IMG/VR virus record: IMGVR_UViG_648276652_000020
Source of the DNA: a virus
Taxonomy: Duplodnaviria > Heunggongvirae > Uroviricota > Caudoviricetes
Length of the DNA: 14,210 bases
Direction: 5' to 3' (one strand)
Part shown: positions 1 through 14,210 of the stretch, in pieces
Layout: each line of letters begins with the position of its first letter
Numbering within the stretch: position 1 is the stretch's first letter
Notes under the pieces: generated by a model
Told to the model about the DNA's origin: nothing
The model's database searches: none
Seen by the model: the letters and a program-made list of their open reading frames with translations, nothing else
Translations under genes and position numbers: made by a program

Positions 1-19
1 CTATTTGATAAATATTAAA

Positions 20-1315
20 TTAATTTTTCATTGCTTCGTTATGGGGCATGGTTGGGGCAAACTCGCTTAACTGTGTATTTAACAAAGCTACCTGTGCATT
101 ATTGTTTTCAGACATCCATTTTCCGTATACCTGAAATACCATTTGCGCATCTGCATGGCCCATCTGGTTTGCTATAAATGCCGGGTTAGCACCAGCTGTC
201 AGCGACCAGCAGGCATAAGTATGTCTCGACTGATATGATTTTCGATGGCGGAGCCCGGCACGTTTTATCGCTGCGTCCCACATCTGCCTTATTGAGTCAA
301 CGGTAAAATGGTCACCATAATTTTTTACTCTCGCTGACACTTCAGGTTGAAAAACAAAGGTGCATTTTTGTTTTTCTGTTCTGCCATACTCTCTGAGGTG
401 AACATCAATGATATGCTCTTTGCTCAGTCTCGTTAATGTCATCTGACTCCGGAGAGCGTCGATTGCTGGCTTAATAAGATGAATGACCCGATTGGTTCCC
501 GCCTGTGTTTTTGGTACCGTGAAACGGTCTTTTGCTAAATTTCTCCTGATCATCATTGTTCCATTTTTCAGATCTATGTCCTCCCATCCAAGTGCACACA
601 GCTCACCAGGGCGAACGCCAGTATAAACAGAAACACACCATAAATTTTTTGCTTGCTGATTTCTGCACGCATCGATAAGACGGATAAATTCCTCCCGCGA
701 AAGAGGATCCGGAATGGTTCTTGATTCCTTTAATGGCGAGATCCCCTTAAACGGATTATCTGCCAGGTAACCGTTATCAACACCAAACTGGAACACGGCG
801 TTAAGATTTGTCATGTAATTATTTACAGTCACAGCCGATCTCCCTGGTTGTGTAACAATATAGTTACTTTTGGGGATCTGGTATCCAGTCAGTAGCTCTT
901 TACGAACCTCCAGTAATTTTTCTTTATTAATCGATGAGGCAAGATTTTTTTCACCGATTATGCTCAGGATATTTTTGATGACGGCACGGTATGTGTTGAG
1001 TGATGTTTTGGCGACTTCAGTTTCTTTCAGTGCCAGAAATTTTTCAGCCAGTTCTTTTATGGTTAAATCTTGTCGGGCCTCACCAAATTTTTCCAGATTG
1101 CGTGAGGAGGGAAACTGTTTTGCATAGTCGAAAACACCAGTTTTTATTGCGTAACAAACAGAGGAGCGTAGTTCACCTGCAACGCGCCTGTTTTTTGTTG
1201 TGTCAGGAACCCCCAGATTTTCCCTGACTCTTACGCCTTTATAAACAAACCAGATACGTAATTTCCCTCCATGGTTTTCCACGCCTGTCGGATATTTCAT
1301 TTCAACTTCTCTCAT
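20..1315 (-). CDS. int: Prophage tyrosine integrase (lambda/Rac-family site-specific recombinase)
   Basis: 431-aa ORF. C-terminal region carries tyrosine-recombinase-type motifs (VYTGVRPGEL; HRKSYQSRHTYACWSL; VFQVYGKW). Sits at the prophage edge next to an excisionase-like gene. The internal Met at 1300 (MKYPTG...) is an alternative start with a GAGAG SD-like sequence upstream. Confidence 0.9.
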   Translation of the reverse strand: MREVEMKYPTGVENHGGKLRIWFVYKGVRVRENLGVPDTTKNRRVAGELRSSVCYAIKTGVFDYAKQFPSSRNLEKFGEARQDLTIKELAEKFLALKETEVAKTSLNTYRAVIKNILSIIGEKNLASSINKEKLLEVRKELLTGYQIPKSNYIVTQPGRSAVTVNNYMTNLNAVFQFGVDNGYLADNPFKGISPLKESRTIPDPLSREEFIRLIDACRNQQAKNLWCVSVYTGVRPGELCALGWEDIDLKNGTMMIRRNLAKDRFTVPKTQAGTNRVIHLIKPAIDALRSQMTLTRLSKEHIIDVHLREYGRTEKQKCTFVFQPEVSARVKNYGDHFTVDSIRQMWDAAIKRAGLRHRKSYQSRHTYACWSLTAGANPAFIANQMGHADAQMVFQVYGKWMSENNNAQVALLNTQLSEFAPTMPHNEAMKN

Positions 1316-1334
1316 TAGTTAGTGTGGCTTTTAG

Positions 1335-1585
1335 TCAAGTAAGATGACGTCTTGGTCTCGCTGATGCCTGGCGCTCAATCCAGCGATCAATTTCTTCCAG
1401 GTTGTAAAAGCATGGACTGTTATCCCATGGCATACCGTCATGAGCGACATGCTTATATTCCCTTCCTTCCATAAACGATTTTTCCCGGGCCTTTTTTAAC
1501 GTACCTTTTTTATTCCTTTCAGCGCAATTAACTGCTCTTCGGATACCCATTTGCCGGGAGAGACAATCATGATTACTTCGCTCAT
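1335..1585 (-). CDS. xis: Excisionase-like small DNA-binding protein (lambda Xis-like), split across two frames at an A_AAA_AAG heptamer; programmed -1 frameshift, pseudogene or homopolymer error
   Basis: Frame A (1585->1496) encodes MSEVIMIVSPGKWVSEEQLIALKGIKKVR*. The -1 frame continues from the heptamer at 1505-1511 as ...KKGTLKKAREKSFMEGREYKHVAHDGMPWDNSPCFYNLEEIDRWIERQ... to 1335. The fused ~83-aa product has a W in the N-terminal helix and an hydrophobic-EGREY-x-H motif resembling lambda Xis (KDGREYLFHE). Lies between int and the exonuclease gene. Confidence 0.5.
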
Positions 1586-1657
1586 CGATTTCTTTATCTC
1601 TTACATCAGACGAGCGCCGGTTGCAGAATACCAGTCACAACCGGCGACAGTTGAACA

Positions 1658-4129
1658 TTAAGAATCAGCCTGACTCGGGATAAGTTTTTGCCAGATAACT
1701 GAAACGTATTTTGCCTGGTAACGGGCGTCATCAAGTGCATTATGGCGCTCACCTTCGAATGGAATAGCCGTTCTGGCATCGAAGTCTATGGCTTTCCCCA
1801 GCTCAACGATTGTGCGTACATCGCGATCGTTGTAGTAACGCCACGGGCAGGGGATCCCCTGCCGTTCGTATGAACGGCGCAAAATCGTGTTGTCGAAGTT
1901 GGCTCCATTTCCCCAAACCTGAACAAAAAATTCACCGGAGTTTTCGTCGATAAATTCCCGCAATTGTAATAGTGCATCATCTAACGGGATTTCATCGGTC
2001 ATAATGGCAGATTGCGCTTCGCGTGATTGCTTAAGCCACCATTTAATGGTGTCCCGATCAATGACTCCGCCAGCAGTTTCCAGATCGATAGTCTTACTAA
2101 ATTCCGGTCCCATATCTCCGGTTTGCGGATCGAAAAATATTGCACCTATTGAGATGATCGGGGCATCAGGATTTTTTCCCATGGTTTCAAGGTCGATCAT
2201 TAGATGGTCACACGTCCTGCTGGTGGATGTGATAACGTGATGACCGTTCACCGTAATTAAGGGATCTGCCGTCTCGCCAGTTTCACTATCGCTGGCGTGG
2301 TCCTGAGCGCTGCCAGCATTCCCCTTGTGTGGATGTTCAGCGCCTTCCATTTTCTCCGAATCGTCTTCCTGAACTTCAACCTGGTTCTTGTCATCGAATG
2401 TTTCCTGGTATGTTGCGTCGCCCATCACCGCACCACAATCATGGCAGTTGCCGCCACCGCTCTGACCGCAGGCGGTGCAGATCTTTTTCGGTTCCTGTTG
2501 CACTACTGGTTCAGGTTGTTTCGTTTCTGGCTCGTTTTGTTGCGTATTTGGGCTGTTTTGTTCCGCTTTCTGATCGTTCTGTTCCGTTTCTTGCTGGTTC
2601 TGGTTCACAGAATCGCGGGTTTCAATCCCCTTTACCCATTCCGGATCATTCGGATCGCTAATCCCTGCAACAAATTCACCGCGTGATACTGCAAGCAGTT
2701 CATCGGTGTCAGGCTGGCTGATATTGGCTGCCTGCATAATTTTGTTTACTTCGTCAGCGGTAACTTTTACCGGCCCTGGTTGTGCGGTCGTGTCAGATGC
2801 ACCAGTATTTTGTTGTGAACCTGAGTATGTACCGTTTTTGCGGGCGAAATATTCTTCTTTCGTGATTTCAGTAGCCCCGGCAGCCAGTGCCTTATCCAGA
2901 CCAGAAAGTTTGTTTGCGCGACCGTATTTTTCGCCATCCTTGTCGGTGAAGAGGAAGTAGAACGGCCCCTCACGCTCTACAGATGGTTCGACTTCCACTT
3001 TGCATTCGGTTTTTTCGTTGTCCGGAATTGCCGTTTCCACTGCATCAGTTTCTGGTACTGGCGACGAGAGAGTATCAGTTGCGCTCTGATTTCTTCCTTC
3101 ATCTTCAAACACGCCCTTTGTAGTCAGGTATTCAGTAATGTATTTGTTCAGTGCCACAGGGTCTTTGTGAATGTCGATCGGACGTTCACGGACAAGGCCA
3201 AAAATAGTCTGGCGGTCGTAGCGAAGGGCATCAGGCTGTTTGCGCATTGATGCCGAGATACGCTTCCAGTCTTCGCGGTCGTTGTCGATAACTTCATTTT
3301 TTGCCCAGCGATGGATGCTGCCGTCAATGTTTCCGGCATCCACATCACCAGGCCAGAGAGCGTAGGCCAGTTCGTCATCCAGTGTTTTCCATGTCTGCTT
3401 GTATTCGCGATGAGTGGCAGCAATGACCGGGCTGATTTTTCCTGTTGAATTGTCAGTGTACTGTTGATTGGCTCTGGCGCGGGCGAGATCAACAACAGAC
3501 GTGTATTTTCCGGTTTCCTTGCGTTCACCTTCGCGACGTTTTTTCCAGATGCGCATCTCTGCCTGAATTTCGGGCCATTTAGCACCAGGAATACATTTAT
3601 GCTTAACCCACCCAATGGCGTGCAACTTAAGCTCCGGATACATGGCGTTAACTTCTGGCATTTTCATCAACGCTTCAACGATATGTCCGTCGAATGTTGC
3701 CATGTCTTCCTGCAACAATTCCTGTGCGCTAATAACCATATCAACGGTGATGTTTTCACATGTGTCGAACTTAACCAGGACCGCGTTCTGTACTTCAGGG
3801 GACAGCTTGTCAAAATTGACGTTCATCGGATCGGATTCTGGTTCGACCGGAATAAAGGAAGCGGATTCCTCATCCCAGCAGTTTTCCTGCATATATTCGG
3901 TATCCCAGGAGTCGATGGCAGGGCGGGGCATGCCGGGTTTATCCTCGCAAACAAGAAATTTATAAGCGCAGTCCTGAGCAGCCGGATATTGCTCCAGGAA
4001 TTGCCAGGTAAATTTGGCTCGGGCGCGGCGTTCGTCGCCGGCTTCAATGGCAGTGGCTACAGCGACTGCACCTTCTTCCTTTATTGCCTGTTCGTCCGGA
4101 ATGGCGGCGCAAATAAAGACTTTACTCAT
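1658..4129 (-). CDS. Prophage exonuclease, 823 aa, with C-terminal DEDDh (DnaQ-like) 3'-5' exonuclease domain (the kind often annotated exodeoxyribonuclease VIII-like)
   Basis: C-terminal domain shows the three DEDDh motifs: Exo I MIDLETMG, Exo II VWGNGANFDNTIL, Exo III ERHNALDDARYQ. The middle is an acidic/Q-rich low-complexity linker with a Cys cluster CTACGQSGGGNCHDCG. Start codon at 4127-4129 has GAGG 10 nt upstream. Confidence 0.85.
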   Translation of the reverse strand: MSKVFICAAIPDEQAIKEEGAVAVATAIEAGDERRARAKFTWQFLEQYPAAQDCAYKFLVCEDKPGMPRPAIDSWDTEYMQENCWDEESASFIPVEPESDPMNVNFDKLSPEVQNAVLVKFDTCENITVDMVISAQELLQEDMATFDGHIVEALMKMPEVNAMYPELKLHAIGWVKHKCIPGAKWPEIQAEMRIWKKRREGERKETGKYTSVVDLARARANQQYTDNSTGKISPVIAATHREYKQTWKTLDDELAYALWPGDVDAGNIDGSIHRWAKNEVIDNDREDWKRISASMRKQPDALRYDRQTIFGLVRERPIDIHKDPVALNKYITEYLTTKGVFEDEGRNQSATDTLSSPVPETDAVETAIPDNEKTECKVEVEPSVEREGPFYFLFTDKDGEKYGRANKLSGLDKALAAGATEITKEEYFARKNGTYSGSQQNTGASDTTAQPGPVKVTADEVNKIMQAANISQPDTDELLAVSRGEFVAGISDPNDPEWVKGIETRDSVNQNQQETEQNDQKAEQNSPNTQQNEPETKQPEPVVQQEPKKICTACGQSGGGNCHDCGAVMGDATYQETFDDKNQVEVQEDDSEKMEGAEHPHKGNAGSAQDHASDSETGETADPLITVNGHHVITSTSRTCDHLMIDLETMGKNPDAPIISIGAIFFDPQTGDMGPEFSKTIDLETAGGVIDRDTIKWWLKQSREAQSAIMTDEIPLDDALLQLREFIDENSGEFFVQVWGNGANFDNTILRRSYERQGIPCPWRYYNDRDVRTIVELGKAIDFDARTAIPFEGERHNALDDARYQAKYVSVIWQKLIPSQADS

Positions 4130-4209
4130 TTTGTTTTAACCTCATTACAGATTTAAGGGTGAACAAATCCCTGCCATTGCTGGCATATAAAAATGAAACC
4201 GGATATTAA

Positions 4210-4413
4210 TTACGGTGCTGTTTTAAGTCCTGCCGGGATTTCGTTATTGTCCATGCGAATAACTTTCTCAACCGGATAACAGTTGCCGGGAATTTTCTGT
4301 TCCGCTGCGGCAGCCATGCATTCTTTCATTGAGTCATGTATACCAATAACAAGATCAACTGGCTCGCCCGTATTAAGAAAAACCGTCAGAACGAGTGCAA
4401 ATGTTGTATTCAT
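4210..4413 (-). CDS. Hypothetical small protein (67 aa from the internal Met; ORF extends to 4467)
   Basis: Start at 4413 has AGGA 8 nt upstream and forms an ATGA start/stop overlap with the upstream ORF (plus 4410-4413). N-terminus is hydrophobic (MNTTFALVLTVFL). No family recognised. Confidence 0.5.
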   Translation of the reverse strand: MNTTFALVLTVFLNTGEPVDLVIGIHDSMKECMAAAAEQKIPGNCYPVEKVIRMDNNEIPAGLKTAP

Positions 4414-4598
4414 TGCCAGTATCCTTTTTGCATCAGACGTAAACGGGCCAGCATTGATACAATGCATATTTGATTTAATAGCTCCCGTTCGTGTTTTCTC
4501 TTATTAATGGCATCTTCAGTAAATACAGGGTTACTGATTCTGACACCAATTTCAAAACAACCTTCAGACGTATTAACGTTTGGTAATAACGTTTCCAT
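4410..4598 (-). CDS. Hypothetical small protein (63 aa; a longer GTG-initiated version would reach 4694)
   Basis: ATG at 4596-4598 preceded by GAGGA at 7-nt spacing. Stop overlaps the start of the next gene (ATGA), suggesting translational coupling. No family recognised. Confidence 0.45.
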   Translation of the reverse strand: METLLPNVNTSEGCFEIGVRISNPVFTEDAINKRKHERELLNQICIVSMLARLRLMQKGYWQ

Positions 4599-4615
4599 TA
4601 TCGCATCCTCAACAA

Positions 4616-4777
4616 TGAATTTTGTGATGCGGTGCCTGGTGCCTCCAGGTGACGTTAACCAGTTAATAATTAACGCCGGATACAGAGAACCCACCCATAA
4701 GAACCAATACGGAAGTCAACTGGCCTTTTTAACTGTTCCGCGTGCGCTGAGCCGCATTCACCGCATCACAAAATTCA
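4616..4777. repeat. Perfect 19-bp inverted repeat (tgaattttgtgatgcggtg at 4616-4634; caccgcatcacaaaattca at 4759-4777) separated by 124 bp
   Basis: Read directly from the sequence; arms are exact reverse complements. The 3' arm on the minus-strand transcript ends about 3 nt before the SD of the 4598 gene. The spacer contains further small palindromes (cctgg-tgcct-ccagg; gttaac; ttaataattaa). Confidence 0.8.
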
Positions 4778-4778
4778 C

Positions 4779-4827
4779 TTTAAAAAGGGCGGGTATCACA
4801 AGGGAAAACAAAAAACGGATACCCGCC
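4779..4827 (-). terminator. Candidate intrinsic terminator-like hairpin on the minus strand (10-bp GC-rich stem, 20-nt loop, then CUUUUUAAAG)
   Basis: Stem ggcgggtatc (4788-4797) pairs with gatacccgcc (4818-4827). On the minus strand the stem is followed by a T5 run (rc of 4779-4787). The loop is unusually long, so efficiency is uncertain. Confidence 0.3.
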
Positions 4828-5174
4828 AAAAGGTAATCAACATGGGTTGTTGCAGCGGGGTTGTCACTTAAGCGTATGGTCAACCTGACAACCCGGTGCC
4901 ACTAATGGGGTAAGAATAACCCCGCCATACTTACCGCCGCGCCATTTCGAGGATTGCCACAACCGGAAGCGCACAGACGAAGATGTCAGTGGTACACAAC
5001 AAAGGGAGGAATGACTTCGCCGTGCGCTTTCGCGTTATGCCCTGACTTTTCAGGGATATATCCTTTCAGTAAACTGTTTGTGCCGGATTCTTATCCGTGT
5101 CCGGCGCACGACCACGCGCTGTCACGTGTGGTCTCCATTCTCAACCAGTAACCTCAATGGAGGATAAAATTAAA

Positions 5175-5474
5175 ATGGTCAGCAAACTAAATCAGACTCG
5201 CTGGAAGATTCATTATGAAACAGCGCGTTTAAATTATATTCTTGAATGTTTTGGGGATAACCTTGCTGCTGAGGAAGGCTATCCAAACCATGTCGATGGT
5301 TTCGAAGCGATATATCTTTATCTATCCCGTAAACATGGATGGACTATTTCACAGTGTCGTTTAATGCCACTGGATGATATTCGCCTTGCTCTTTCGTTAG
5401 AGCTATCAGGGTGGCGACTCCCTGATGATGCAAAGATTGACGACCATCATTCTCACGATGATATAAGTTGTTAA
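5175..5474 (+). CDS. Hypothetical protein (~99 aa) encoded opposite to the surrounding leftward operon
   Basis: ATG at 5175 preceded by GGAGGA (5159-5164). Translation has balanced composition (MVSKLNQTRWKIHYETARLNYILECFGDNLAAEEGYPNHVDGFEAIYLYLSRKHGW...). Its 3' end overlaps the convergent minus-strand ORF by 131 bp, so one of the two may be mis-called. Confidence 0.45.
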   Translation: MVSKLNQTRWKIHYETARLNYILECFGDNLAAEEGYPNHVDGFEAIYLYLSRKHGWTISQCRLMPLDDIRLALSLELSGWRLPDDAKIDDHHSHDDISC

Positions 5475-5733
5475 GTTCCAGTAGTTTGGCTTTTGCAATG
5501 ACCTCTACAGATTTCCAGAATTTGTGGGGGTCTGTACTCTCTTCCTGTTCGTCAGGAATGTTATTGTCCTCAACAGAAACAGAATACAGTCCGGTAAACG
5601 CATCGCGCACATTACGAGCCATATTATCAATGTCTTTTTTCGTTTCAGCTTCTAATGCAACTTCGTTCAGACGTTGACGAAGTGTATGTGCTGCAATTTC
5701 TTGGATTTCTTTTGGTAACTCTTTAAATTCCAT
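5344..5733 (-). CDS. Hypothetical protein (129 aa from Met at 5733; ORF extends to 5745)
   Basis: GAGG SD 6 nt upstream of the ATG at 5731-5733. The upstream gene's TGA stop overlaps an in-frame ATG (plus 5743-5747). N-terminal two-thirds is charged and helical-looking (MEFKELPKEIQEIAAHTLRQRLNEVALEAETKKDIDNMARNV...). Confidence 0.55.
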   Translation of the reverse strand: MEFKELPKEIQEIAAHTLRQRLNEVALEAETKKDIDNMARNVRDAFTGLYSVSVEDNNIPDEQEESTDPHKFWKSVEVIAKAKLLELNNLYHRENDGRQSLHHQGVATLIALTKEQGEYHPVALNDTVK

Positions 5734-5744
5734 AGTCAACCTCA

Positions 5745-5978
5745 TCAGTCAGTGTTTCTGGCTAACCAGCGATGCGCGCCAGTTTCGGTTTTAAACGTTT
5801 TGCTTTTGGTATACGTCATCGCGGTGAATGTGCCGTCCTGGTTGGAAAACACGCCGTACACCAGAGATTCGTTGTTGCCAAGATCGATAGTATCCATGCT
5901 GACCTCATTTCCCCTTAACGCCGGGGTAGCGGAACAAAAACCTGCTGCATAGTTATTAAAGTTGAACCCTGCCGTCAT
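5745..5978 (-). CDS. Hypothetical small protein (77 aa; alternative start at 5897 gives 50 aa), first gene of the leftward operon next to the repressor
   Basis: ATG at 5976-5978 has GAGG 7 nt upstream; the internal ATG at 5897 also has an SD. Lies directly downstream of the candidate leftward promoter. No family recognised. Confidence 0.55.
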   Translation of the reverse strand: MTAGFNFNNYAAGFCSATPALRGNEVSMDTIDLGNNESLVYGVFSNQDGTFTAMTYTKSKTFKTETGAHRWLARNTD

Positions 5979-6076
5979 GTTCTTACGCCTCGGGCTGGCT
6001 ACTTACCCCCTGACCACTGCCTGGTAACTCGAAGTATTGCCCGGCGTTCTGTGGGGTGGGGTGAGGGAATGAATGA

Positions 6077-6122
6077 AGTTTAGAAAAATGAACTTTTCAG
6101 GTCAATGTTTTTTTATCAAAAC
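6077..6122 (-). promoter_or_regulatory. Candidate leftward early promoter (pL-like) with an adjacent operator-like palindrome
   Basis: On the minus strand: TTGACC (rc of 6100-6105), 17-nt spacer, TAAACT (rc of 6077-6082). Immediately upstream is gtttttttatcaaaac (6107-6122), a GTTTT...AAAAC pseudo-palindrome matching the operator-like sites near the repressor start. Assigned by hexamer matching only. Confidence 0.3.
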
Positions 6123-6189
6123 ATTTTAGGCAGGCAGCTGTTAAGCCATCACCACGATGGCATACAGTTAATCAAATAGATGAGGTTGG

Positions 6190-6828
6190 TTAAATATCTT
6201 GTTGAATTTTAAAGCATACGCCCAATATGCAAGATAGATCTTCCAGCATAATTGAAGGGTAGCGAGGATTCGTGGGGACTAAAAGAATATCCGGCCCTTC
6301 TATCTCCAGTTTACGAATGACAGGTGTTGTGGTCCCTTTGGGTAAGGCAAGGACAATATTTCCTGGTTGTACGGTTCGATCGGGATCAACAAAAACTGTT
6401 GAACCATTTGGGATGGAAACTCCCCCACCAGATGTTGACATACTGTCACTCTCTAGAACAACTGCAAAGGTATTGGCCGGGATTTCTCCGACAAGCTGCA
6501 CACAAGAGGTTATTGAGGAATTTTTCATATAATCACTCCAGCTTGCTGCCTGCTGAAGTGATAGTAGCGGAACCGTTTTTATCGGCGGTAAAGATAGATC
6601 AAGCGAATCACCTGTATTTAACTCTCCTCCATTAAGAAGCCAATTTTCGTTTACTTTCAATATCTTTGCCAGTGAACTTATGTAACGCGAGGACGGCGCT
6701 CCTCCACCGTTCATCCATTGACTTACGGAGCCTTTTGATGCGCCAGTGGCATTGACAAGGTCTTTGCCTTTCAGGTTTAGCGCATGCATACGTTGGGTTA
6801 TGCGTTCAGATATTGTTTGCTTGCTCAT
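6190..6828 (-). CDS. cI-like prophage repressor (N-terminal HTH, C-terminal S24/LexA-like autopeptidase domain)
   Basis: 212 aa. N-terminal HTH region (...LNLKGKDLVNATGASKGSVSQWMNG...). C-terminal domain with the Ser-containing motif VVLESDSMS...VFVDPD and a downstream Lys (VIRKLEIEG), as in lambda CI/LexA. Divergent from a cro-like gene. No SD, consistent with a leaderless pRM-type transcript. Confidence 0.9.
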   Translation of the reverse strand: MSKQTISERITQRMHALNLKGKDLVNATGASKGSVSQWMNGGGAPSSRYISSLAKILKVNENWLLNGGELNTGDSLDLSLPPIKTVPLLSLQQAASWSDYMKNSSITSCVQLVGEIPANTFAVVLESDSMSTSGGGVSIPNGSTVFVDPDRTVQPGNIVLALPKGTTTPVIRKLEIEGPDILLVPTNPRYPSIMLEDLSCILGVCFKIQQDI

Positions 6829-6890
6829 GTTTTGATTTTAAAACACAGATGGTTTTGTTTCTTGACTTTCTTTGGTTTTGATTATTAAAC
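6828..6890. promoter_or_regulatory. Divergent promoter/operator region: three operator-like sites at 23-bp phasing overlapping candidate pR and pRM
   Basis: GTTTTG-initiated sites at 6829, 6852 and 6875. Site 1 gttttgattttaaaac and site 3 gttttgattattaaac match 14/16; site 2 is more degenerate. Rightward -35 TTGACT (6862-6867) with -10-like TATTAA (6883-6888). Leftward -10-like TAAAAT (rc of 6834-6839) sits 4 nt from the repressor ATG. Confidence 0.5.
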
Positions 6891-6919
6891 TTTTGGCGTT
6901 CAGTTTTATGGAGCGACTC

Positions 6920-7162
6920 ATGAAAAAATCAGAAGTATTAGGCTATTTTGGCGGAGTTGTTAAAACAGCCGCAGCTCTAGGAACGTCAAAAACCACAGTC
7001 AGCATGTGGGGGGAAGAGGTTCCGTGGAAATGGGCGTTGCTAATTCAGGCAGTCACTGCCGGGGCGCTCAAATATGAGTTACACATACCGACGGTTGTCA
7101 TTCCCGGTTCTGATCATAATCCGCCTTCTAACCAAGGGGGGATTCATGAAAATCAAGCATGA
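6920..7162 (+). CDS. ydaS: Cro-like HTH regulator (YdaS-like)
   Basis: 80 aa from ATG 6920 with GGAG 6 nt upstream. MKK...GG...AAALG.S..TVS.W pattern resembles YdaS/Cro-like HTH proteins. Divergent from the repressor; overlaps the next gene by 17 nt. Confidence 0.65.
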   Translation: MKKSEVLGYFGGVVKTAAALGTSKTTVSMWGEEVPWKWALLIQAVTAGALKYELHIPTVVIPGSDHNPPSNQGGIHENQA

Positions 7163-7571
7163 ACACATCCGCATGGCGATGAATGCCTGGGCGCATCCGG
7201 ACGGCGAAAAAGTACCGGCTGCGAAAATTACCAAAGCGTATTTCGAACTGGGAATGACGTTCCCGGAACTGTACGACGACAGCCATCCGGAAGCCCTGGC
7301 TCGCAATACCCAGAAAATTTTCCGCTGGGTAGAGAAAGACACCCCTGATGCAGTTGAAAAAATTCAGGCGTTGTTACCAGCGATCGAAAAGGCAATGCCA
7401 CCTTTGCTGGTGGCCAGAATGCGCAGCCACAGTTCAGCTTATTTTCGGGAGCTGGTGGAGACGCGGGCGCGACTGGTGAGAGACGCTGATGATTTTGTCG
7501 CAGTGGCAATCGCCGGTTTCAATCAGATGAACCGTGGTGGCCCGGCAGGAAATGCTGTGGCAGTACATTGA
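7146..7571 (+). CDS. ydaT: YdaT-like protein (CII-like regulator family; historically annotated as toxin YdaT)
   Basis: 141 aa from ATG 7146 with AAGGGGGG upstream. N-terminus MKIKHEHI and C-terminal ...VH match my recollection of Rac YdaT. Position is cro-proximal, as for lambda cII. Confidence 0.7.
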   Translation: MKIKHEHIRMAMNAWAHPDGEKVPAAKITKAYFELGMTFPELYDDSHPEALARNTQKIFRWVEKDTPDAVEKIQALLPAIEKAMPPLLVARMRSHSSAYFRELVETRARLVRDADDFVAVAIAGFNQMNRGGPAGNAVAVH

Positions 7572-7642
7572 CTGACAATAGCCATATCGAATCGCTTCCG
7601 GCAACTCGTGAGTAAAACGATTCGGTATCAGAAGAGGTGAGT

Positions 7643-8713
7643 ATGGCTAACGCCTGGCTCAGATTATGGCATGACATGCCAAATGACCCTAAGTGGCGAA
7701 CAATTGCCAGGGTGTCAGGGCAGCCAATTGCAACAGTGATGGCAGTGTATATCCACCTCCTGGTGAGCGCGTCACGAAATGTCACGCGAGGTCACATTGA
7801 TGTCACGACAGAAGATTTGGCAAGTGCGCTCGACGTGACAGAAGAGGTAATTGATTCAATTTTGCAGACGATGCAGGGGCGGGTACTTGATGGTGATTTA
7901 ATCACTGGATGGGAAAAACGCCAGGTGCTTAAAGAGGACAACGGCAATATTTCGCAAACCGCAAAATCTCCTGCAGAGCGCAAGAGGGCGCAGCGAGAGA
8001 GGGAAAGAAAGCGGGAACAAAATGGCGATTGTCACGGCGCGTCACGAAATGTCACGCACATGTCACGACGAGTCACGACAGATAAAGATACAGATAAAGA
8101 TACAGATCAAGAAGATCAAAACACTATGGTCCATGGCGTAAAAAACGCCACGAACCAGGCAGGGGATGTTCAGACCGTCAATCCTGGTCAGCCAGCAGGC
8201 ACGACACCGGAAGCCGATTCAGCGTATGCGCTGAAAGCCGATTCGGGCGCTGTGCAGCAGGTGATGATCGCAAGGCCGGAGCAATCACACCAACTGCAGC
8301 AGCCTGAAGCCGATTCCGCCATTCAGCGGGAAGCCGATCGGGTAGTCCCGGAAAACACCGGGCAGTCTGTGGGACGAGTGGATTATCCGGATGTGTTCGA
8401 ACAGGTCTGGCGGGAGTACCCGTTGCGTGCCGGAGCAAACCCGAAGAAATCCGCTTTCAGTGCCTGGAAGGCCAGATTACGCGAGGGGGTGCCACCAGAG
8501 GCCATGCTGGATGGCGTGAGGCGTTACGCAAGATACCTGGCGGCTACCGGGAAAACGGGAACGGAATTTGTTCAGCGAGCGACGACGTTTTTTGGACCGG
8601 ACAGGAATTTTGAGAACCCCTGGTTGCTCCCGGTAAGCGGCACGAACAACCAGCGTTGTGTGAATCATATTTCTGAACCGGATAACGAAATTCCGCCGGG
8701 CTTCAGGGGGTAA
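7643..8713 (+). CDS. Putative replication initiator (lambda O-like in organisation) containing internal iteron clusters
   Basis: 356 aa from ATG 7643 with AGAGG 5 nt upstream (the ORF track starts at GTG 7637). Two clusters of GTCACG repeats lie inside the ORF. The low-complexity, charged middle (SRNVT repeats, TDKDTDKDTDQEDQ) looks like an interdomain linker. Follows the cro/cII-like genes. Confidence 0.65.
   Translation: MANAWLRLWHDMPNDPKWRTIARVSGQPIATVMAVYIHLLVSASRNVTRGHIDVTTEDLASALDVTEEVIDSILQTMQGRVLDGDLITGWEKRQVLKEDNGNISQTAKSPAERKRAQRERERKREQNGDCHGASRNVTHMSRRVTTDKDTDKDTDQEDQNTMVHGVKNATNQAGDVQTVNPGQPAGTTPEADSAYALKADSGAVQQVMIARPEQSHQLQQPEADSAIQREADRVVPENTGQSVGRVDYPDVFEQVWREYPLRAGANPKKSAFSAWKARLREGVPPEAMLDGVRRYARYLAATGKTGTEFVQRATTFFGPDRNFENPWLLPVSGTNNQRCVNHISEPDNEIPPGFRG
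7767..7844. repeat. Iteron cluster 1: four direct GTCACG/GTCACA repeats at 10-11-bp phasing plus one inverted copy
   Basis: GTCACG at 7771, 7781, 7802 and GTCACA at 7791; inverted CGTGAC at 7834-7839. Shares the 21-mer gcgcgtcacgaaatgtcacgc (7767-7787) with cluster 2 (8037-8057). Confidence 0.6.
8031..8120. repeat. Iteron cluster 2 plus adjacent A-rich tandem repeat: candidate prophage replication origin
   Basis: GTCACG at 8031, 8041, 8051, 8062, 8072 (10-11-bp spacing), followed by gataaagataca x2 and gatcaagaagatcaaaac (8081-8120). Iterons next to an A-rich segment within the initiator gene, as in ori-lambda. Confidence 0.6.
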
Positions 8714-8753
8714 GTGTTAATTTCTGGTCATGAGGTAATTTTCAGGAGGGCTT

Positions 8754-9176
8754 GTGGCAAAAGTTTTTACACAAGAAGAGCGGGAAAAAATTAAAGGGCA
8801 GGTTCTTGAACTCGTACGCCAGAGTGGGCGCGAGACGTTACGACAACTGGAAGCTAAAACTGGGGCAACAAGATATCTGATGAGCGTTCTGGCCAGAGAG
8901 CTGGTTGCCAGTGGCGATGTATACAATTCTGGCTACGGGTTATTCCCGTCTGAACAGGCTCGTAAAGACTGGCAAAATGCCCGCAAAAAATTATCGAGGG
9001 CAAAGCTGAAGAAACCGGTTGTGGTTGATCCGGACCTTATCTGGTCATTACCTGACGGAGAAATACGTCGCTACGACAGTCGCCTAAACATAATCTGTCG
9101 CGAGTGCCGGAAGAGCGAAGTTATGCAGCGCATATTGTCGTTTTATCAGGGGGATGTTCGGTATTTATTGAAGTGA
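8754..9176 (+). CDS. Hypothetical protein (140 aa), last gene of the replication-side operon before the prophage ends
   Basis: GTG start at 8754 with AGGAGGG upstream. No Walker A motif, so not a DnaC/P-type helicase loader. N-terminal region may be a winged-helix-like fold. Function unknown. Confidence 0.5.
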   Translation: MAKVFTQEEREKIKGQVLELVRQSGRETLRQLEAKTGATRYLMSVLARELVASGDVYNSGYGLFPSEQARKDWQNARKKLSRAKLKKPVVVDPDLIWSLPDGEIRRYDSRLNIICRECRKSEVMQRILSFYQGDVRYLLK

Positions 9177-9510
9177 CGAGATTAAAGTGCATTAGTTCAG
9201 ATGCAAATTGACATTTTGTGGCACAGGGTAGAGCTAGCGTGGTTGTCCGCTTTGTGCCAAGAGCAGACGCTGGTAATTCGTGCCTAATATACTTCACTTA
9301 ACTTATATCCCAGCTTTGATACAGATCATACAAATTAAATGCCCCAGTAATTGGCAGGCTGAGTAACTTAAAACTCCTTAGAATATAGGATGATTTGTAT
9401 CGGCACTCATTCCACCATGCATTCCGATTAACCCCGCATAGCCAGTTGAACTTTGCTACTCTGTGAGAGGTAGTACCTTCTATCCAGTGCGGATTTAATT
9501 AATGGAATAA

Positions 9511-11514
9511 ATGATTATGAGTGAAAATGATACAACCCCAAAGAAGTCTACAAGCCAGATTAACAAAGCGGTATTCTTTACATCTGCTTTGCTAATTTTC
9601 CTTCTTGTCGCCTTTGCCGCCGTATTCCCGGATGTCGCCGACAAAAATTTTAAACTACTTCAGCAACAAATCTTCACGAATGCCAGCTGGTTCTACATAC
9701 TTGCTGTGGCCCTGATTTTACTGAGCGTCACGTTCCTTGGACTCTCACGTTACGGTGATATAAAGCTGGGCCCAGACCATGCGCAGCCTGATTTCAGCTA
9801 CCACTCCTGGTTCGCGATGCTTTTTTCGGCAGGGATGGGGATCGGCCTGATGTTCTTTGGCGTTGCCGAACCTGTGATGCATTATCTTTCGCCACCTGTC
9901 GGCACTCCAGAGACCGTTGCGGCAGCGAAGGAAGCCATGCGCCTGACGTTCTTCCACTGGGGTCTGCACGCATGGGCAATTTATGCCATCGTGGCGCTGA
10001 TTCTGGCCTTTTTCAGTTACCGTCACGGTCTGCCTTTAACGCTGCGTTCTGCGCTCTATCCCATTATCGGCGATCGCATTTACGGGCCTATAGGCCACGC
10101 GGTTGATATCTTCGCCGTGATAGGCACTGTCTTTGGCGTTGCAACATCGCTGGGTTACGGTGTATTGCAGGTGAATGCCGGTTTGAACCATCTTTTCGGC
10201 GTGCCCATCAATGAAACGGTACAGGTCATTTTGATCGTGGTCATCACGGGGTTAGCGACGATTTCGGTGGTGTCCGGCCTGGACAAGGGAATACGCATCC
10301 TGTCTGAGCTTAATCTGGGCCTGGCGGTGTTGCTCCTGGCGCTGGTCTTGTGCCTGGGTCCCACTGTGCTTCTGCTGAAGTCATTTGTGGAAAATACGGG
10401 TGGTTATCTGTCGGAACTGGTGAGTAAAACGTTCAACCTTTACGCGTATGAACCCAAGTCGAGCAACTGGCTGGGGGGCTGGACATTATTATACTGGGGA
10501 TGGTGGCTTTCATGGTCGCCGTTTGTAGGTATGTTCATTGCACGCGTTTCCCGCGGCAGGACAATTCGTGAGTTCGTGACTGGCGTGTTGTTTGTTCCCG
10601 CCGGCTTTACGCTCATGTGGATGACGGTGTTTGGAAACAGCGCCATCTATCTCATCATGAACCAGGGCGCCACTGACCTCGCCAATACCGTTCAGCAGGA
10701 TGTTGCGCTTGCCCTGTTTAATTTCCTGGAGCATTTCCCGTTCTCTTCCGTGCTGTCATTCATTGCAATGGCGATGGTCATCGTCTTCTTTGTAACGTCT
10801 GCTGATTCGGGGGCAATGGTTGTGGATACTCTGGCATCAGGTGGGGTGGCAAACACGCCCGTCTGGCAGCGAATTTTCTGGGCATCGCTCATGGGCGTTG
10901 TTGCTATTGCCCTGCTGATCGCAGGGGGGCTGAGTGCGTTGCAAACCGTAACGATAGCGAGTGCATTGCCCTTCTCAGTTATCTTATTAATATCCATATA
11001 CGGACTGTTAAAAGCCCTGCGTCGGGATTTGACCAAGCGTGAAAGCCTTAGCATGGCGACTATTGCTCCTACGGCTGCACGTAACCCAATTCCCTGGCAG
11101 AGAAGGTTACGCAATATCGCGTATTTGCCGAAGCGCTCTCTTGTGAAACGTTTTATGGACGACATTATCCAACCCGCCATGACGCTGGTTCAGGAGGAAC
11201 TTAACAAGCAGGGAACGATAAGCCACATCAGTGACGCCGCCGAGGATCGTATTCGCCTTGAAGTCGATTTGGGCAACGAGCTGAATTATATATATGAAGT
11301 GAGGCTTCGCGGGTATAACTCACCGACCTTCGCGCTCGCTGCGCTGGATAATGATGAGCAGCAGAGTGAACAACATCGATATTATCGCGCTGAAGTCTAT
11401 CTCAAAGAGGGCGGCCAAAATTATGATGTAATGGGCTGGAATCAGGAACAGCTGATTAATGACATACTGGACCAGTACGAAAAACACCTGCACTTCCTGC
11501 ATCTGGTTCGTTAA
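9511..11514 (+). CDS. BCCT-family transporter, BetT-like (choline/glycine betaine/osmolyte uptake)
   Basis: 667 aa. BCCT signature WTLLYWGWWLSWSPFVGMFIARVSRGRTIREF. Multiple transmembrane segments and a long cytoplasmic C-terminal extension ending ...INDILDQYEKHLHFLHL, closely resembling the E. coli BetT C-terminus. Start at 9511 or 9517; the SD is weak. Confidence 0.93.
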   Translation: MIMSENDTTPKKSTSQINKAVFFTSALLIFLLVAFAAVFPDVADKNFKLLQQQIFTNASWFYILAVALILLSVTFLGLSRYGDIKLGPDHAQPDFSYHSWFAMLFSAGMGIGLMFFGVAEPVMHYLSPPVGTPETVAAAKEAMRLTFFHWGLHAWAIYAIVALILAFFSYRHGLPLTLRSALYPIIGDRIYGPIGHAVDIFAVIGTVFGVATSLGYGVLQVNAGLNHLFGVPINETVQVILIVVITGLATISVVSGLDKGIRILSELNLGLAVLLLALVLCLGPTVLLLKSFVENTGGYLSELVSKTFNLYAYEPKSSNWLGGWTLLYWGWWLSWSPFVGMFIARVSRGRTIREFVTGVLFVPAGFTLMWMTVFGNSAIYLIMNQGATDLANTVQQDVALALFNFLEHFPFSSVLSFIAMAMVIVFFVTSADSGAMVVDTLASGGVANTPVWQRIFWASLMGVVAIALLIAGGLSALQTVTIASALPFSVILLISIYGLLKALRRDLTKRESLSMATIAPTAARNPIPWQRRLRNIAYLPKRSLVKRFMDDIIQPAMTLVQEELNKQGTISHISDAAEDRIRLEVDLGNELNYIYEVRLRGYNSPTFALAALDNDEQQSEQHRYYRAEVYLKEGGQNYDVMGWNQEQLINDILDQYEKHLHFLHLVR

Positions 11515-11521
11515 CAGCAAC

Positions 11522-11550
11522 ATGCCGCCACAGAGGCGGCATTTATTTAT
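11522..11550 (+). terminator. Rho-independent terminator downstream of the BetT-like gene
   Basis: Stem atgccgcc (11522-11529), loop acaga, stem ggcggcat (11535-11542), then ttatttat. Confidence 0.7.
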
Positions 11551-11577
11551 CCCGGCTGCAATATGAGGGAATGCAGA

Positions 11578-12855
11578 ATGATTTCACGCTGGAAATGGAT
11601 GCTGAAGCAGACATTTAAAAAACTATGGTTCAGGGCAACGTTATTCGCAATTGTCGCAATAATAACGGCCCTTTTATCAATTCTTTTTAAATCAATGATA
11701 CCTGAGTCGGTTTCCGTGAAGGTTGGTGCGGAAGCAGTCGATAACATTCTGAACATACTGGCATCGAGTATGCTGGCAGTGACCACATTTTCGCTGAGCA
11801 TCATGGTCACAGCCTACGGTTCAGCCACTACTAATGTGACTCCCAGAGCTACTCGTTTAGTTGTTGAAGACGTCACCACACAAAATGTACTGGCCACCTT
11901 CATCGGTTCTTTTCTCTTCAGTCTGGTAGGGATTATTGCCCTCAATATGGGAGCTTATGGAGAAAGGGGGAGAGTCATTTTATTCATTGTAACACTGGTT
12001 GTCATTGCCTTAATCCTCATCACATTGCTTCGCTGGATACAGCATTTGACCTCTCTGGGGAGGGTTGGTGAGACAACGGCAAAAGTAGAACAGGCGGCCA
12101 TCGAAACATTTATTGCGAGAGCAAGAAATCCCTGTCTCGGCGGATATCCATGGCTTGAGAACAATGAACAGCCGAAAGGAACGGTTGCAGTTTATCCGAA
12201 AAAGATTGGCTATGTTGAATATGTTGATATGGTGAAACTCAGCAAGCTGCTGACCAATGATCCCCGTCATGTATACCTCGTGGCGCAGCCGGGCAGTTTC
12301 ATACATCCGTCCACGCCAGTTTTGTACCTGAGTCAGGGCCAGGAGTCATCAATCAGCACCGATTTACTTGAGACGATTATTGTCTCGGATGTACGTTCAT
12401 TTGCTCAGGACCCCCGATTTTGTCTTAGCGTCATGGCCGAAATAGCCTGCCGAGCCCTTTCCCCCGCAGTGAACGATCCTGGAACCGCCATTGATGTCAT
12501 TGGCAGAGGTGTACGTATACTTTCCGCTTACGCGCAGAATAAATCTGATGAAATAGAAGTGAAATATCCTTCTGTACATGTTGCACCACTTCAGAATAAC
12601 GATCTACTTGAAGACTTTTTCTCACCTGTTGCGCGCGATGGTGCCAGTATGAGGGAAATTCAGATAAGGGTACTTAAAGGACTGTCGATGCTGAGTAAGG
12701 GTTGGCCTGGAATTTTTGCTGAAGCCGCACAAACCCTAGCATTTGAAACATTAGAGCATGCTACTCGTGCTGACCATATAGATTCTGACAGATATCTAAT
12801 AAAATCAATTTATTATAATTTATTTAGTGGCGAAGATTCTAATAAAAAACCATAG
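11578..12855 (+). CDS. Putative membrane protein, possibly DUF2254-like (from memory), with N-terminal TM helices and a large soluble domain
   Basis: ATG 11578 with GAGGGA 6 nt upstream (the track starts at 11563). N-terminal hydrophobic segments (LFAIVAIITALLSILF; FIGSFLFSLVGIIALNMG; ILFIVTLVVIALILITLL). Motif CRALSPAVNDPGTAIDVIG is what I associate with DUF2254. Family assignment is from memory only. Confidence 0.65.
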   Translation: MISRWKWMLKQTFKKLWFRATLFAIVAIITALLSILFKSMIPESVSVKVGAEAVDNILNILASSMLAVTTFSLSIMVTAYGSATTNVTPRATRLVVEDVTTQNVLATFIGSFLFSLVGIIALNMGAYGERGRVILFIVTLVVIALILITLLRWIQHLTSLGRVGETTAKVEQAAIETFIARARNPCLGGYPWLENNEQPKGTVAVYPKKIGYVEYVDMVKLSKLLTNDPRHVYLVAQPGSFIHPSTPVLYLSQGQESSISTDLLETIIVSDVRSFAQDPRFCLSVMAEIACRALSPAVNDPGTAIDVIGRGVRILSAYAQNKSDEIEVKYPSVHVAPLQNNDLLEDFFSPVARDGASMREIQIRVLKGLSMLSKGWPGIFAEAAQTLAFETLEHATRADHIDSDRYLIKSIYYNLFSGEDSNKKP

Positions 12856-12985
12856 TTGCGGAGCAAGCGATACGGTTGTTGGCAAGTCAAGGGCAAAGCA
12901 TTCGCGTGAGAGTGGGCGTCTGCTTTGTGCCAGAAGCGGACATACGTAACTTATGATACGCATCGCCAATCATCCGTTTCAAACA

Positions 12986-14210
<1,225 letters not shown>

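Follow-up and report, generated by a model that had tools for sequence, protein, structure and literature searches.

A candidate phage replication origin with two iteron arrays inside the coding sequence of its own initiator

Why should a gene for a phage replication initiator carry, within its reading frame, two clusters of the same short DNA repeat? The gene lies in a 14,210-nt stretch of Escherichia coli chromosome (IMG/VR virus record IMGVR_UViG_648276652_000020, here called the window) that covers the left part of a Rac/Qin-like lambdoid prophage beside rspB. It encodes a 356-residue protein (7643-8713, + strand) that is designated a replication initiator from PHROG 3729 and its RefSeq name, and its repeats, copies of the hexamer GTCACG, are concentrated in array 1 (7770-7810) and array 2 (8030-8080), the second of which abuts an A-rich tract. 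We assign a probability of roughly 0.75 to the reading that this region is the replication origin of the prophage, located within the gene for its own initiator; that origin would probably be formed by array 2 with the A-rich tract, and the initiator protein would read it. The principle of an iteron origin inside an initiator gene is textbook, and a literature search, which also took in Rac oriJ and the Eru replication types, returned no paper describing the origin of this family. What appears to be new from the comparisons below is a family-wide bipartite layout, concerted switching among five repeat cores, and recurrence of the layout in an unrelated protein domain.

The window holds 14 copies of GTCACG, where shuffles lead one to expect 5.5 +/- 2.3, and 9 of the 14 fall within 7771-7839 and 8031-8077. 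Array 2 holds five direct copies on the + strand at 8031, 8041, 8051, 8062 and 8072 (spacing 10/10/11/10 bp), and the Poisson probability of five copies in 47 bp is ~1.6e-11, or 2e-7 across all start positions. Array 1, also on the + strand, has copies at 7771, 7781 and 7802 and a one-mismatch GTCACA at 7791 (spacing 10/10/11 bp), followed after a further 32 bp by an inverted copy (7834-7839, - strand, CGTGAC on the + strand). An earlier note on this DNA had proposed four to five GTCACG copies per cluster, a count that stands as it is for array 2, while array 1 consists of three exact copies, one variant and one inverted copy. Its other descriptions of the repeats were borne out: copies are 10-11 bp apart, close to a helical turn, and the exact 21-mer GCGCGTCACGAAATGTCACGC is common to both arrays, at 7767 and 8037. 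The genome of the complete phage Tritos (46,360 bp), which carries the same gene, has no GTCACG cluster besides arrays 1 and 2, and thus no second origin-like cluster of this kind. Iteron-like sequences were not enriched 3' of the A-rich tract, and DnaA boxes (TTWTNCACA, up to one mismatch) numbered 35 in the window against 29.8 expected, with none in 7767-8160. Helical phasing between the two arrays (Rayleigh R 0.67 at a 10-bp period, only 0.42 at 10.5 bp) was set aside because the iteron period and phylogeny confound the statistic.

The repeats can also be read as repeated peptide, with ASRNVT at residues 43-48 and 133-138 and with TDKDTDKDTD, which agrees with the earlier proposal that the DNA forces SRNVT and TDKDTD motifs on the protein. 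Since the hexamer is read in all three frames, as VT, SR and CH/GH, it is the DNA repeat that gives rise to the peptide repeat, not the other way round. To place the arrays in the protein we used an AlphaFold2 model of residues 1-165, built with 59 homologues, which is confident at residues 10-90 (predicted local distance difference test, pLDDT, mostly >90), with helices at 29-45, 56-63 and 67-77 plus a beta wing, and disordered at residues 129-165 (pLDDT ~40). Array 1 codes for residues 43-56, the helix end and the loop (46-55 in the model) that precedes the helix-turn-helix; the inverted copy encodes residues 64-66 (DVT), the helix-turn-helix turn that lies between its helices 2 and 3; and array 2 codes for residues 130-146 of the disordered linker, or 130-160 together with the A-rich tract. 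Because they map to a loop, a turn and a linker, the repeats appear from the model to sit where the protein tolerates imposed sequence. Two relatives, L168 and L088, have a 7-codon insertion in the array 1 loop, equal to 21 bp or two repeat units.

The three-frame reading, conserved synonymous sites and the same gene positions across genera together argue that selection acts on the repeats at the DNA level. When the genes from E. coli, Aeromonas phage pAEv1818 and Pseudomonas phage P7869 (~73% N-domain protein identity) are aligned by codon, codons 43-56 are almost identical and synonymous sites outside them are saturated. A wider test was made on the 25 homologues that align without gaps, counting identical codons wherever the residue is the same and taking codons 43-66 as inside. 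Identical codons made up 343 of 483 (71%) inside and 457 of 1206 (38%) outside, giving an odds ratio of 4.0 and p = 2e-35 in a statistic that ignores shared ancestry, with a large per-codon contrast. At the four-fold degenerate codons V47, T48, V54, T55 and V65, identity across these 25 homologues was 91-100% (1.00 for V65), and H51 was also at 0.91-1.0. It is thus very improbable that a repeated peptide (SRNVT, TDKD) or slippage during replication accounts for the DNA repeats, with no function at the DNA level. The repeated peptides do exist, the D/K/E-rich linker is of low complexity and tandem copy number varies among relatives, but the three reading frames, the constancy of four-fold sites in the hexamer where the same amino acids elsewhere use varied codons, and a peptide that changes with the core while the 10-11-bp DNA period stays all speak against such an origin for the repeats.

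GTCACG copies are found at gene positions ~129, 139, 149 and 160, inverted at 192, and again at ~389-430 in ~28 loci with 51-87% identity to the window gene, from Aquitalea, Rahnella, Serratia, Bordetella, Pseudomonas, Gilvimarinus, Acidovorax, Castellaniella, Chromobacterium and other genera, and the flanks of these loci have ~0-1 copy per 2 kb. The earlier note had named absence of the repeats from close homologues as grounds for refuting its candidate origin; in these relatives both arrays lie at the same gene-relative positions, and the candidate origin passed this check. Its remark that two clusters are unusual was fair as a comment on iteron origins, and having two proves to be a conserved feature of the family and not a peculiarity of the window copy. 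Across the family array 2 has 3-7 copies, spaced by 10 bp in 111 cases, by 11 bp in 17, and by double spacings in a few. In two further loci, L131 (a Serratia metagenome-assembled genome) and L152 (Pantoea), the same N-terminal domain is fused to a C-terminus judged by eye to be GIY-YIG-nuclease-like, and none of the five iteron cores described below is present in those genes; an initiator-type N-domain may there be used for something besides initiation. The plasmid collection gave only 11 records, chiefly large plasmids, wrongly labelled chromosomes and Pseudomonas records of phage size, and was uninformative on autonomous replication.

Directly beside array 2 lies an A-rich, purine-rich tract (8078-8125, + strand) that includes the 12-bp tandem ACAGATAAAGAT repeated 2.9 times at 8078-8112; the earlier note had described a 12-bp tandem repeat and an A-rich tract at this place. 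Its segment 8080-8119 has the lowest GC content in the gene (27.5%) and an AT skew of +0.59, with the A excess on the coding strand, and 8078-8125 is the candidate DNA-unwinding element. In homologues, too, a purine- and A-rich tract always comes after array 2. The 40 nt that follow its final iteron average 49% A and 73% purine, whereas the loci as wholes have 23% and 53%, and a recurring hexamer-periodic motif (..AGATAAAGA..) persists there in GC-rich hosts. Immediately 3' of the tract is a feature that the earlier description lacked, an imperfect 31-bp inverted repeat (8127-8157) with 13-bp arms, TGGTCCATGGCGT aaaaa ACGCCACGAACCA. Folded as single-stranded DNA, its bottom strand reaches -10.9 kcal/mol (z -5.5 against shuffles) and its top strand -8.7 kcal/mol (z -3.1). 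At the same place in homologues, 39% of loci have a GC-rich inverted-repeat stem of at least 6 bp, compared with 12% for windows taken at random (Mann-Whitney p = 1.6e-7); the arms differ between loci, in a way that looks like compensatory change, and the loop is often T(G/A)AC. Many beta-proteobacterial homologues have a perfect GC-rich stem of 7-11 bp at this place (loci L103, L126, L138, L144, L146, L158 and L163 among them). The inverted repeat might be bound by a protein, or might form a single-strand hairpin that serves in priming or in helicase loading. In lambda, too, the AT-rich tract of the origin is followed by a palindrome.

Comparison with more distant homologues shows that the repeats also change along with the protein. 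Those that lack GTCACG have GTAACG, GTGACG, GCAACG or (C)GAACGC at the same two places, so that the five cores amount to a variable triplet before an invariant ACG. We compared the cores at 79 loci, of which 39 have at least three copies of one core in both regions. Both arrays use the same core in all 39, with none discordant (21 GTCACG, 2 GTAACG, 4 GTGACG, 3 GCAACG and 9 GAACGC), and when array 1 regions were shuffled among loci the observed agreement was reached in 0 of 10,000 trials. When residues encoded by the iterons are masked and a neighbour-joining tree is built from the N-domain, parsimony requires ~9 changes of core class on it, the logical minimum being 4. Iteron class and phylogeny are too confounded in the 66 sequences available for column correlation to name specificity residues. 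At the threshold of three copies, 11 of the 79 loci have neither array, and some of these hold degenerate copies.

Natural recombinants divide the gene at the same place. Some E. coli genes share only nt 1-458 of the window gene, which comprises the N-domain, both arrays and the start of the A-rich tract, and continue into another C-terminus; in one of them (L168) this C-terminus is a DnaT DNA-binding domain (PF17948), and a 'replication protein P' gene follows. In others the shared part is nt 476-1069 alone, and the N-terminus is a different one (L167, from O157:H7). The recombination boundary, nt 458-476, is the A-rich tract, which is what one would expect if N-domain and iterons made up a single specificity unit. 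Site and reader would be inherited and recombined together because the sites lie inside the reader's own gene. The comparisons as a whole indicate that the repeats are co-inherited with the N-domain and that the two arrays co-vary with each other.

The O157 recombinant also provides an independent case of the layout. Its gene (E. coli O157:H7 F6667, NZ_CP038366.1, 1481-2572) encodes the same C-domain behind an unrelated N-domain, for which comparison with the initiator family found no detectable similarity (hhalign probability 0.4%). The coding region of this N-domain has its own iteron, AAGGGGCTT, with 11-bp spacing. The copies form two arrays, one at nt 172-207 and one at 441-474, and a purine-rich tract comes after the latter; a gene for a DnaC/IstB-like ATPase, which has no counterpart in the window, comes next. 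Because this N-domain is dissimilar and yet holds its own iteron in two arrays, the two-array design recurs in an unrelated reader domain.

Co-variation and co-recombination with the N-domain also bear on whether another protein might use the repeats. They could be operator-type sites for a different early-operon or host protein, such as the DUF977 or YdaT/CII-like product or a nucleoid protein, and serve transcription control, which we consider improbable. The products of both neighbouring genes are of DNA-binding type, the iteron when reverse-complemented is similar to a -35 hexamer, and the - strand has one promoter-like match at 8055-8028. Promoter-like matches were nevertheless not enriched (3 against 4.1 expected from shuffles), and terminator matches were likewise not above shuffles, the - strand 'terminator' match at 8157-8127 being the inverted repeat itself. 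The Pseudomonas, Ralstonia and metagenomic phage loci have the arrays but lack DUF977 and YdaT, it is the initiator N-domain and not the neighbours with which the arrays co-vary and co-recombine, and the order of iterons, A-rich tract and inverted repeat is that of an origin.

The protein itself is consistent with the origin reading. Its domain order is an N-terminal winged helix, a basic helix, a disordered linker, a C-terminal domain of helicase-recruitment type and a DnaT-like tail. Over its full length it matches PHROG 3729 'replication initiation protein' (E 1.7e-257), its C-terminal half matches PHROG 1701 'DnaD-like helicase loader' and PHROGs named 'primosomal protein' and 'replication protein', and its RefSeq name is 'phage replisome organizer'. 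A Pfam-A scan of the whole protein found no family at E <= 0.01; the first 129 residues give an end-to-end alignment with PF09681 (Phage_rep_org_N) that scores 16.6 bits, where the curated cut-off is 23.3, and a scan of the separate domains at E <= 10 listed only PF09681 and HTH_Crp_2, with no PF04492 (Phage_rep_O). The modelled N-domain is a winged helix, closest by root-mean-square deviation to the N-terminal domain of DnaD and to a plasmid initiator. The basic helix (residues 110-130, AERKRAQRERERKRE, coded by 7970-8032 on the + strand) is a helix in the AlphaFold2 model and is encoded just upstream of array 2, and its residues R113, R118, E119 and R120 are invariant in the homologue alignment.

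At the other end, the last 24 residues (333-356, coded by 8639-8710 on the + strand) match NCBIfam NF002770 at its positions 156-179 of 179, as well as PDB chains 6aep, 2ru8 and 9zbt. The tail, SEPDNEIPPGFRG, nearly copies the C-terminal end of the host primosomal protein DnaT, SEPDNHIPPGFRG, and many homologues have a whole DnaT DNA-binding domain (PF17948) in place of the short tail. This resemblance, together with the PF17948 homologues, suggests that the initiator plugs into the host replication-restart or DnaB-DnaC loading pathway; a literature search found no statement on the role or contacts of the last DnaT residues. In Tritos the initiator gene is the only recognisable replication gene, with no helicase, loader or primase, and in both Tritos and the window the gene that follows is DUF977, with no phage helicase loader or helicase gene there. 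Among relatives the downstream gene varies, encoding a DnaC-like loader (Aeromonas, O157), a primase-helicase (Pseudomonas), DnaB (Ralstonia) or a P protein (O113). The window gene is 97.7-99.2% identical to genes in seven sequenced E. coli phage records, including Tritos and Evi, and is present at a coverage of at least 80% in 1646 of 5426 complete E. coli genomes. Within the C-terminal half, a 36-nt direct repeat (8207-8242 and 8303-8338, 75% identical) encodes a repeated PEADSA...(K/E)AD, and the O157 relative lacks part of the segment between the two copies.

From these features we infer binding by the N-domain, unwinding at the A-rich tract and recruitment of the host helicase. The winged-helix N-domain, possibly aided by the invariant basic helix, would bind successive 10-11-bp iterons with the core GTCACG on one face of the helix. 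Array 2 (8030-8080), the origin-proximal array, would load the complex beside the A-rich tract (8078-8125), where the duplex would open, and the inverted repeat (8127-8157) may serve to mark this opened region or keep it stable. The DnaB-DnaC loading machinery of the host would then be brought in by the C-terminal domain and the DnaT-like tail, a step proposed because helicase, loader and primase genes are all missing from this type of phage. As in lambda, the origin would be traversed by transcripts from the promoter on the cro side. The best reading, by analogy, is that array 2, A-rich tract and inverted repeat make up a lambda-like origin in a disordered linker.

The lambda origin lies midway along the O gene as tandem initiator-binding repeats with an AT-rich tract on one side (PMC7466680). 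Likenesses to the O genes of lambda, P27 and 933W extend to an origin placed mid-gene, between DNA-binding and partner-binding domains, to an AT-rich tract directly beside the iterons (8080-8119 in the window, and kept in homologues), to an N-terminal half that with the iterons forms a specificity module while the C-terminal half is exchangeable, and to a gene that lies downstream of a cI/cro switch and is transcribed through. The protein, however, is not a detectable homologue of lambda O, having no Pfam match to it; the lambda iterons are ~19 bp long and dyad-symmetric, where those in the window are 10-11-bp direct repeats with a 6-bp core; lambda has one array, where here a second lies 260 bp upstream in the region coding for the DNA-binding domain; and no P gene follows the initiator in the window. 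The parallel with the lambda origin drawn in the earlier note therefore holds for the arrangement of iterons, A-rich tract and inverted repeat within the linker, and not for the initiator or the iterons themselves.

Two separated arrays are found in the iteron plasmids P1 (incC/incA) and F (incB/incC), where they lie near or flank the initiator gene, one at the origin and one auxiliary. The window resembles these in having two separate arrays of the same repeat, and differs in an initiator that is not of the Rep_3/WH1-WH2 type by Pfam, in iterons half as long, in having both arrays within coding sequence and in having no DnaA boxes in 7767-8160. In phage SPP1, oriL lies in gene 38, where the organiser G38P binds direct repeats in its own gene beside an AT-rich unwinding element (PMC6316719). 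Direct repeats together with an AT-rich stretch inside an organiser-type gene are shared with the window, and RefSeq and PHROG annotation put the window protein in the replisome-organiser functional class, with the sub-threshold PF09681 match of its N-domain given above. The window's order of iterons, A-rich tract and inverted repeat in the inter-domain linker agrees with the arrangement described for oriL as it does with that of lambda. SPP1 has, by contrast, a second origin (oriR) far away, where Tritos has no other GTCACG cluster, and encodes its own loader and helicase, where the Tritos-type phage encodes none. The origins of E. coli phage-inducible chromosomal islands, which were functionally tested, have two sets of short iterons flanking an AT-rich putative melting site, outside the pri-rep gene (PMC6092414). 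They share with the window two sets of short iterons and an AT-rich stretch, whereas here both arrays are upstream of the A-rich tract and inside the gene. The arrangement thus differs from the lambda, SPP1 and chromosomal-island origins in having both arrays in the reading frame and on the same side of the A-rich tract.

Array 1 is most likely an auxiliary binding site for the same initiator, in the loop of the winged-helix domain. Array 1 with its inverted copy (7770-7839), 260 bp upstream of array 2, might serve cooperative assembly or looping, or autoregulation in which the initiator damps its own transcription, and the present data do not separate an auxiliary-origin role from a regulatory one. 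That array 1 is needed for origin function we hold at somewhat less than even odds. Also less likely than not is the proposal that this widespread initiator family of proteobacterial phages has a bipartite origin in its own coding sequence, with one array in a permissive loop of the DNA-binding domain and one in the linker, both bound by the N-domain and needed for full function, inherited and recombined as one unit with their reader, and with cores that switched 'dialect' in concert at least four times. If that were true, core switching would create replication-specificity groups, and the O157 two-array design would make the layout something that function requires and not an accident of history.

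It is also possible, though on balance unlikely, that only array 2 and the A-rich tract form the origin, array 1 being an autoregulatory element or roadblock, a site for titration or handcuffing like P1 incA or F incC, or a passenger of gene conversion. Array 2 is the more constant and more widespread element, since 20 of the 79 loci have it together with fewer than three exact copies in region 1, and nine loci show the reverse. The in vitro requirement in lambda is limited to the iterons beside the AT-rich region (PMC7466680). The exact 21-mer shared by the arrays is compatible with recent conversion between them, and array 1 gains or loses whole units, as with the 21-bp insertion in L168 and L088. 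A neutral passenger, however, should not persist in the form observed, in which the synonymous sites of array 1 are kept across genera while others are saturated, its core switches with that of array 2 in every class, and the two-array layout recurs with an unrelated N-domain.

Several observations weigh against the proposal that the region is an origin read by the initiator, or against parts of it. Array 1 is not universal by these counts, about 20 of 79 loci having fewer than three exact copies in region 1, and no repeated core was found in L113, L115 or L129, three of the eleven loci that have neither array at the threshold. The statistics on synonymous sites and on phasing between arrays ignore phylogeny. 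None of the 59 homologues matches PF09681 at E <= 0.01, and the initiator itself falls below the family threshold. Recognition of the iterons by the N-domain rather than by the basic helix is an assumption, because the nearest structural relative, the N-terminal domain of DnaD, is mainly an oligomerisation domain. A literature search found no experimental report of binding, unwinding or origin firing in this initiator family. Finally, the window copy of the gene lies in a truncated prophage and may possibly not fire in its host genome.

The proposed origin would be of use beyond this prophage. A 2022 survey of non-lambda replication modules in Shiga toxin phages stated that there was no knowledge of the proteins involved in their replication (PMC8951638), and O157 and O113 prophages have related modules. 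With an origin defined in sequence and a clear code for its specificity, one would have a direct handle for testing the replication of phages that use a single phage protein, and the code could be used to predict replication compatibility groups among co-resident prophages. The family would also offer a natural system for co-evolution of initiator and site when the sites lie in the initiator's own reading frame, and cores that differ only in the three bases before ACG would make for a simple specificity-swap design.

The prophage around the gene is a remnant of ~9 kb, so called because its homology to Tritos stops at 9276, ~100 bp past the DUF977 gene, and because late genes are missing. Homology to Tritos covers 1-5110 and 7141-9276, and 9277-14210 holds a BCCT transporter, a DUF2254 protein and a LysR regulator. 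The integrase, the excisionase region, an SOS-type (S24) repressor and the initiator are still present, with genes for the integrase (20-1315, - strand), a RecE-like exonuclease (1658-4129, - strand), the S24-type repressor (6190-6828, - strand), a YdaT/CII-like protein (7074-7571, + strand) and, after the initiator, DUF977 (8754-9176, + strand), whose product weakly matches a PHROG named 'DNA binding protein'. At least 80% of the window is common to only 49 genomes. In the divergent repressor/cro region, a consensus scan, whose matches were not above shuffles, gave a promoter-like site (TTGACT-18-TAAACT, 6862-6891, + strand), a candidate pR-type promoter whose transcript would cover cro, ydaT and the initiator gene.

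The immunity region (5110-7141, repressor and cro side) has homology to Tritos only in a 310-bp block at 5754-6063, and the modules that flank it, exonuclease and replication, are 93-97% identical to Tritos, a mosaicism typical of lambdoid phages. Positions ~4775-4827 align to the DicF small RNA annotation of Tritos (29634-29686 there, within a block of 92.7% identity), and an Rfam scan of the whole window, including this stretch, found no family at its gathering score. The RecE-like exonuclease gene, on the opposite strand, contains a 21-bp tandem repeat of four copies (2516-2599, 73% matches).

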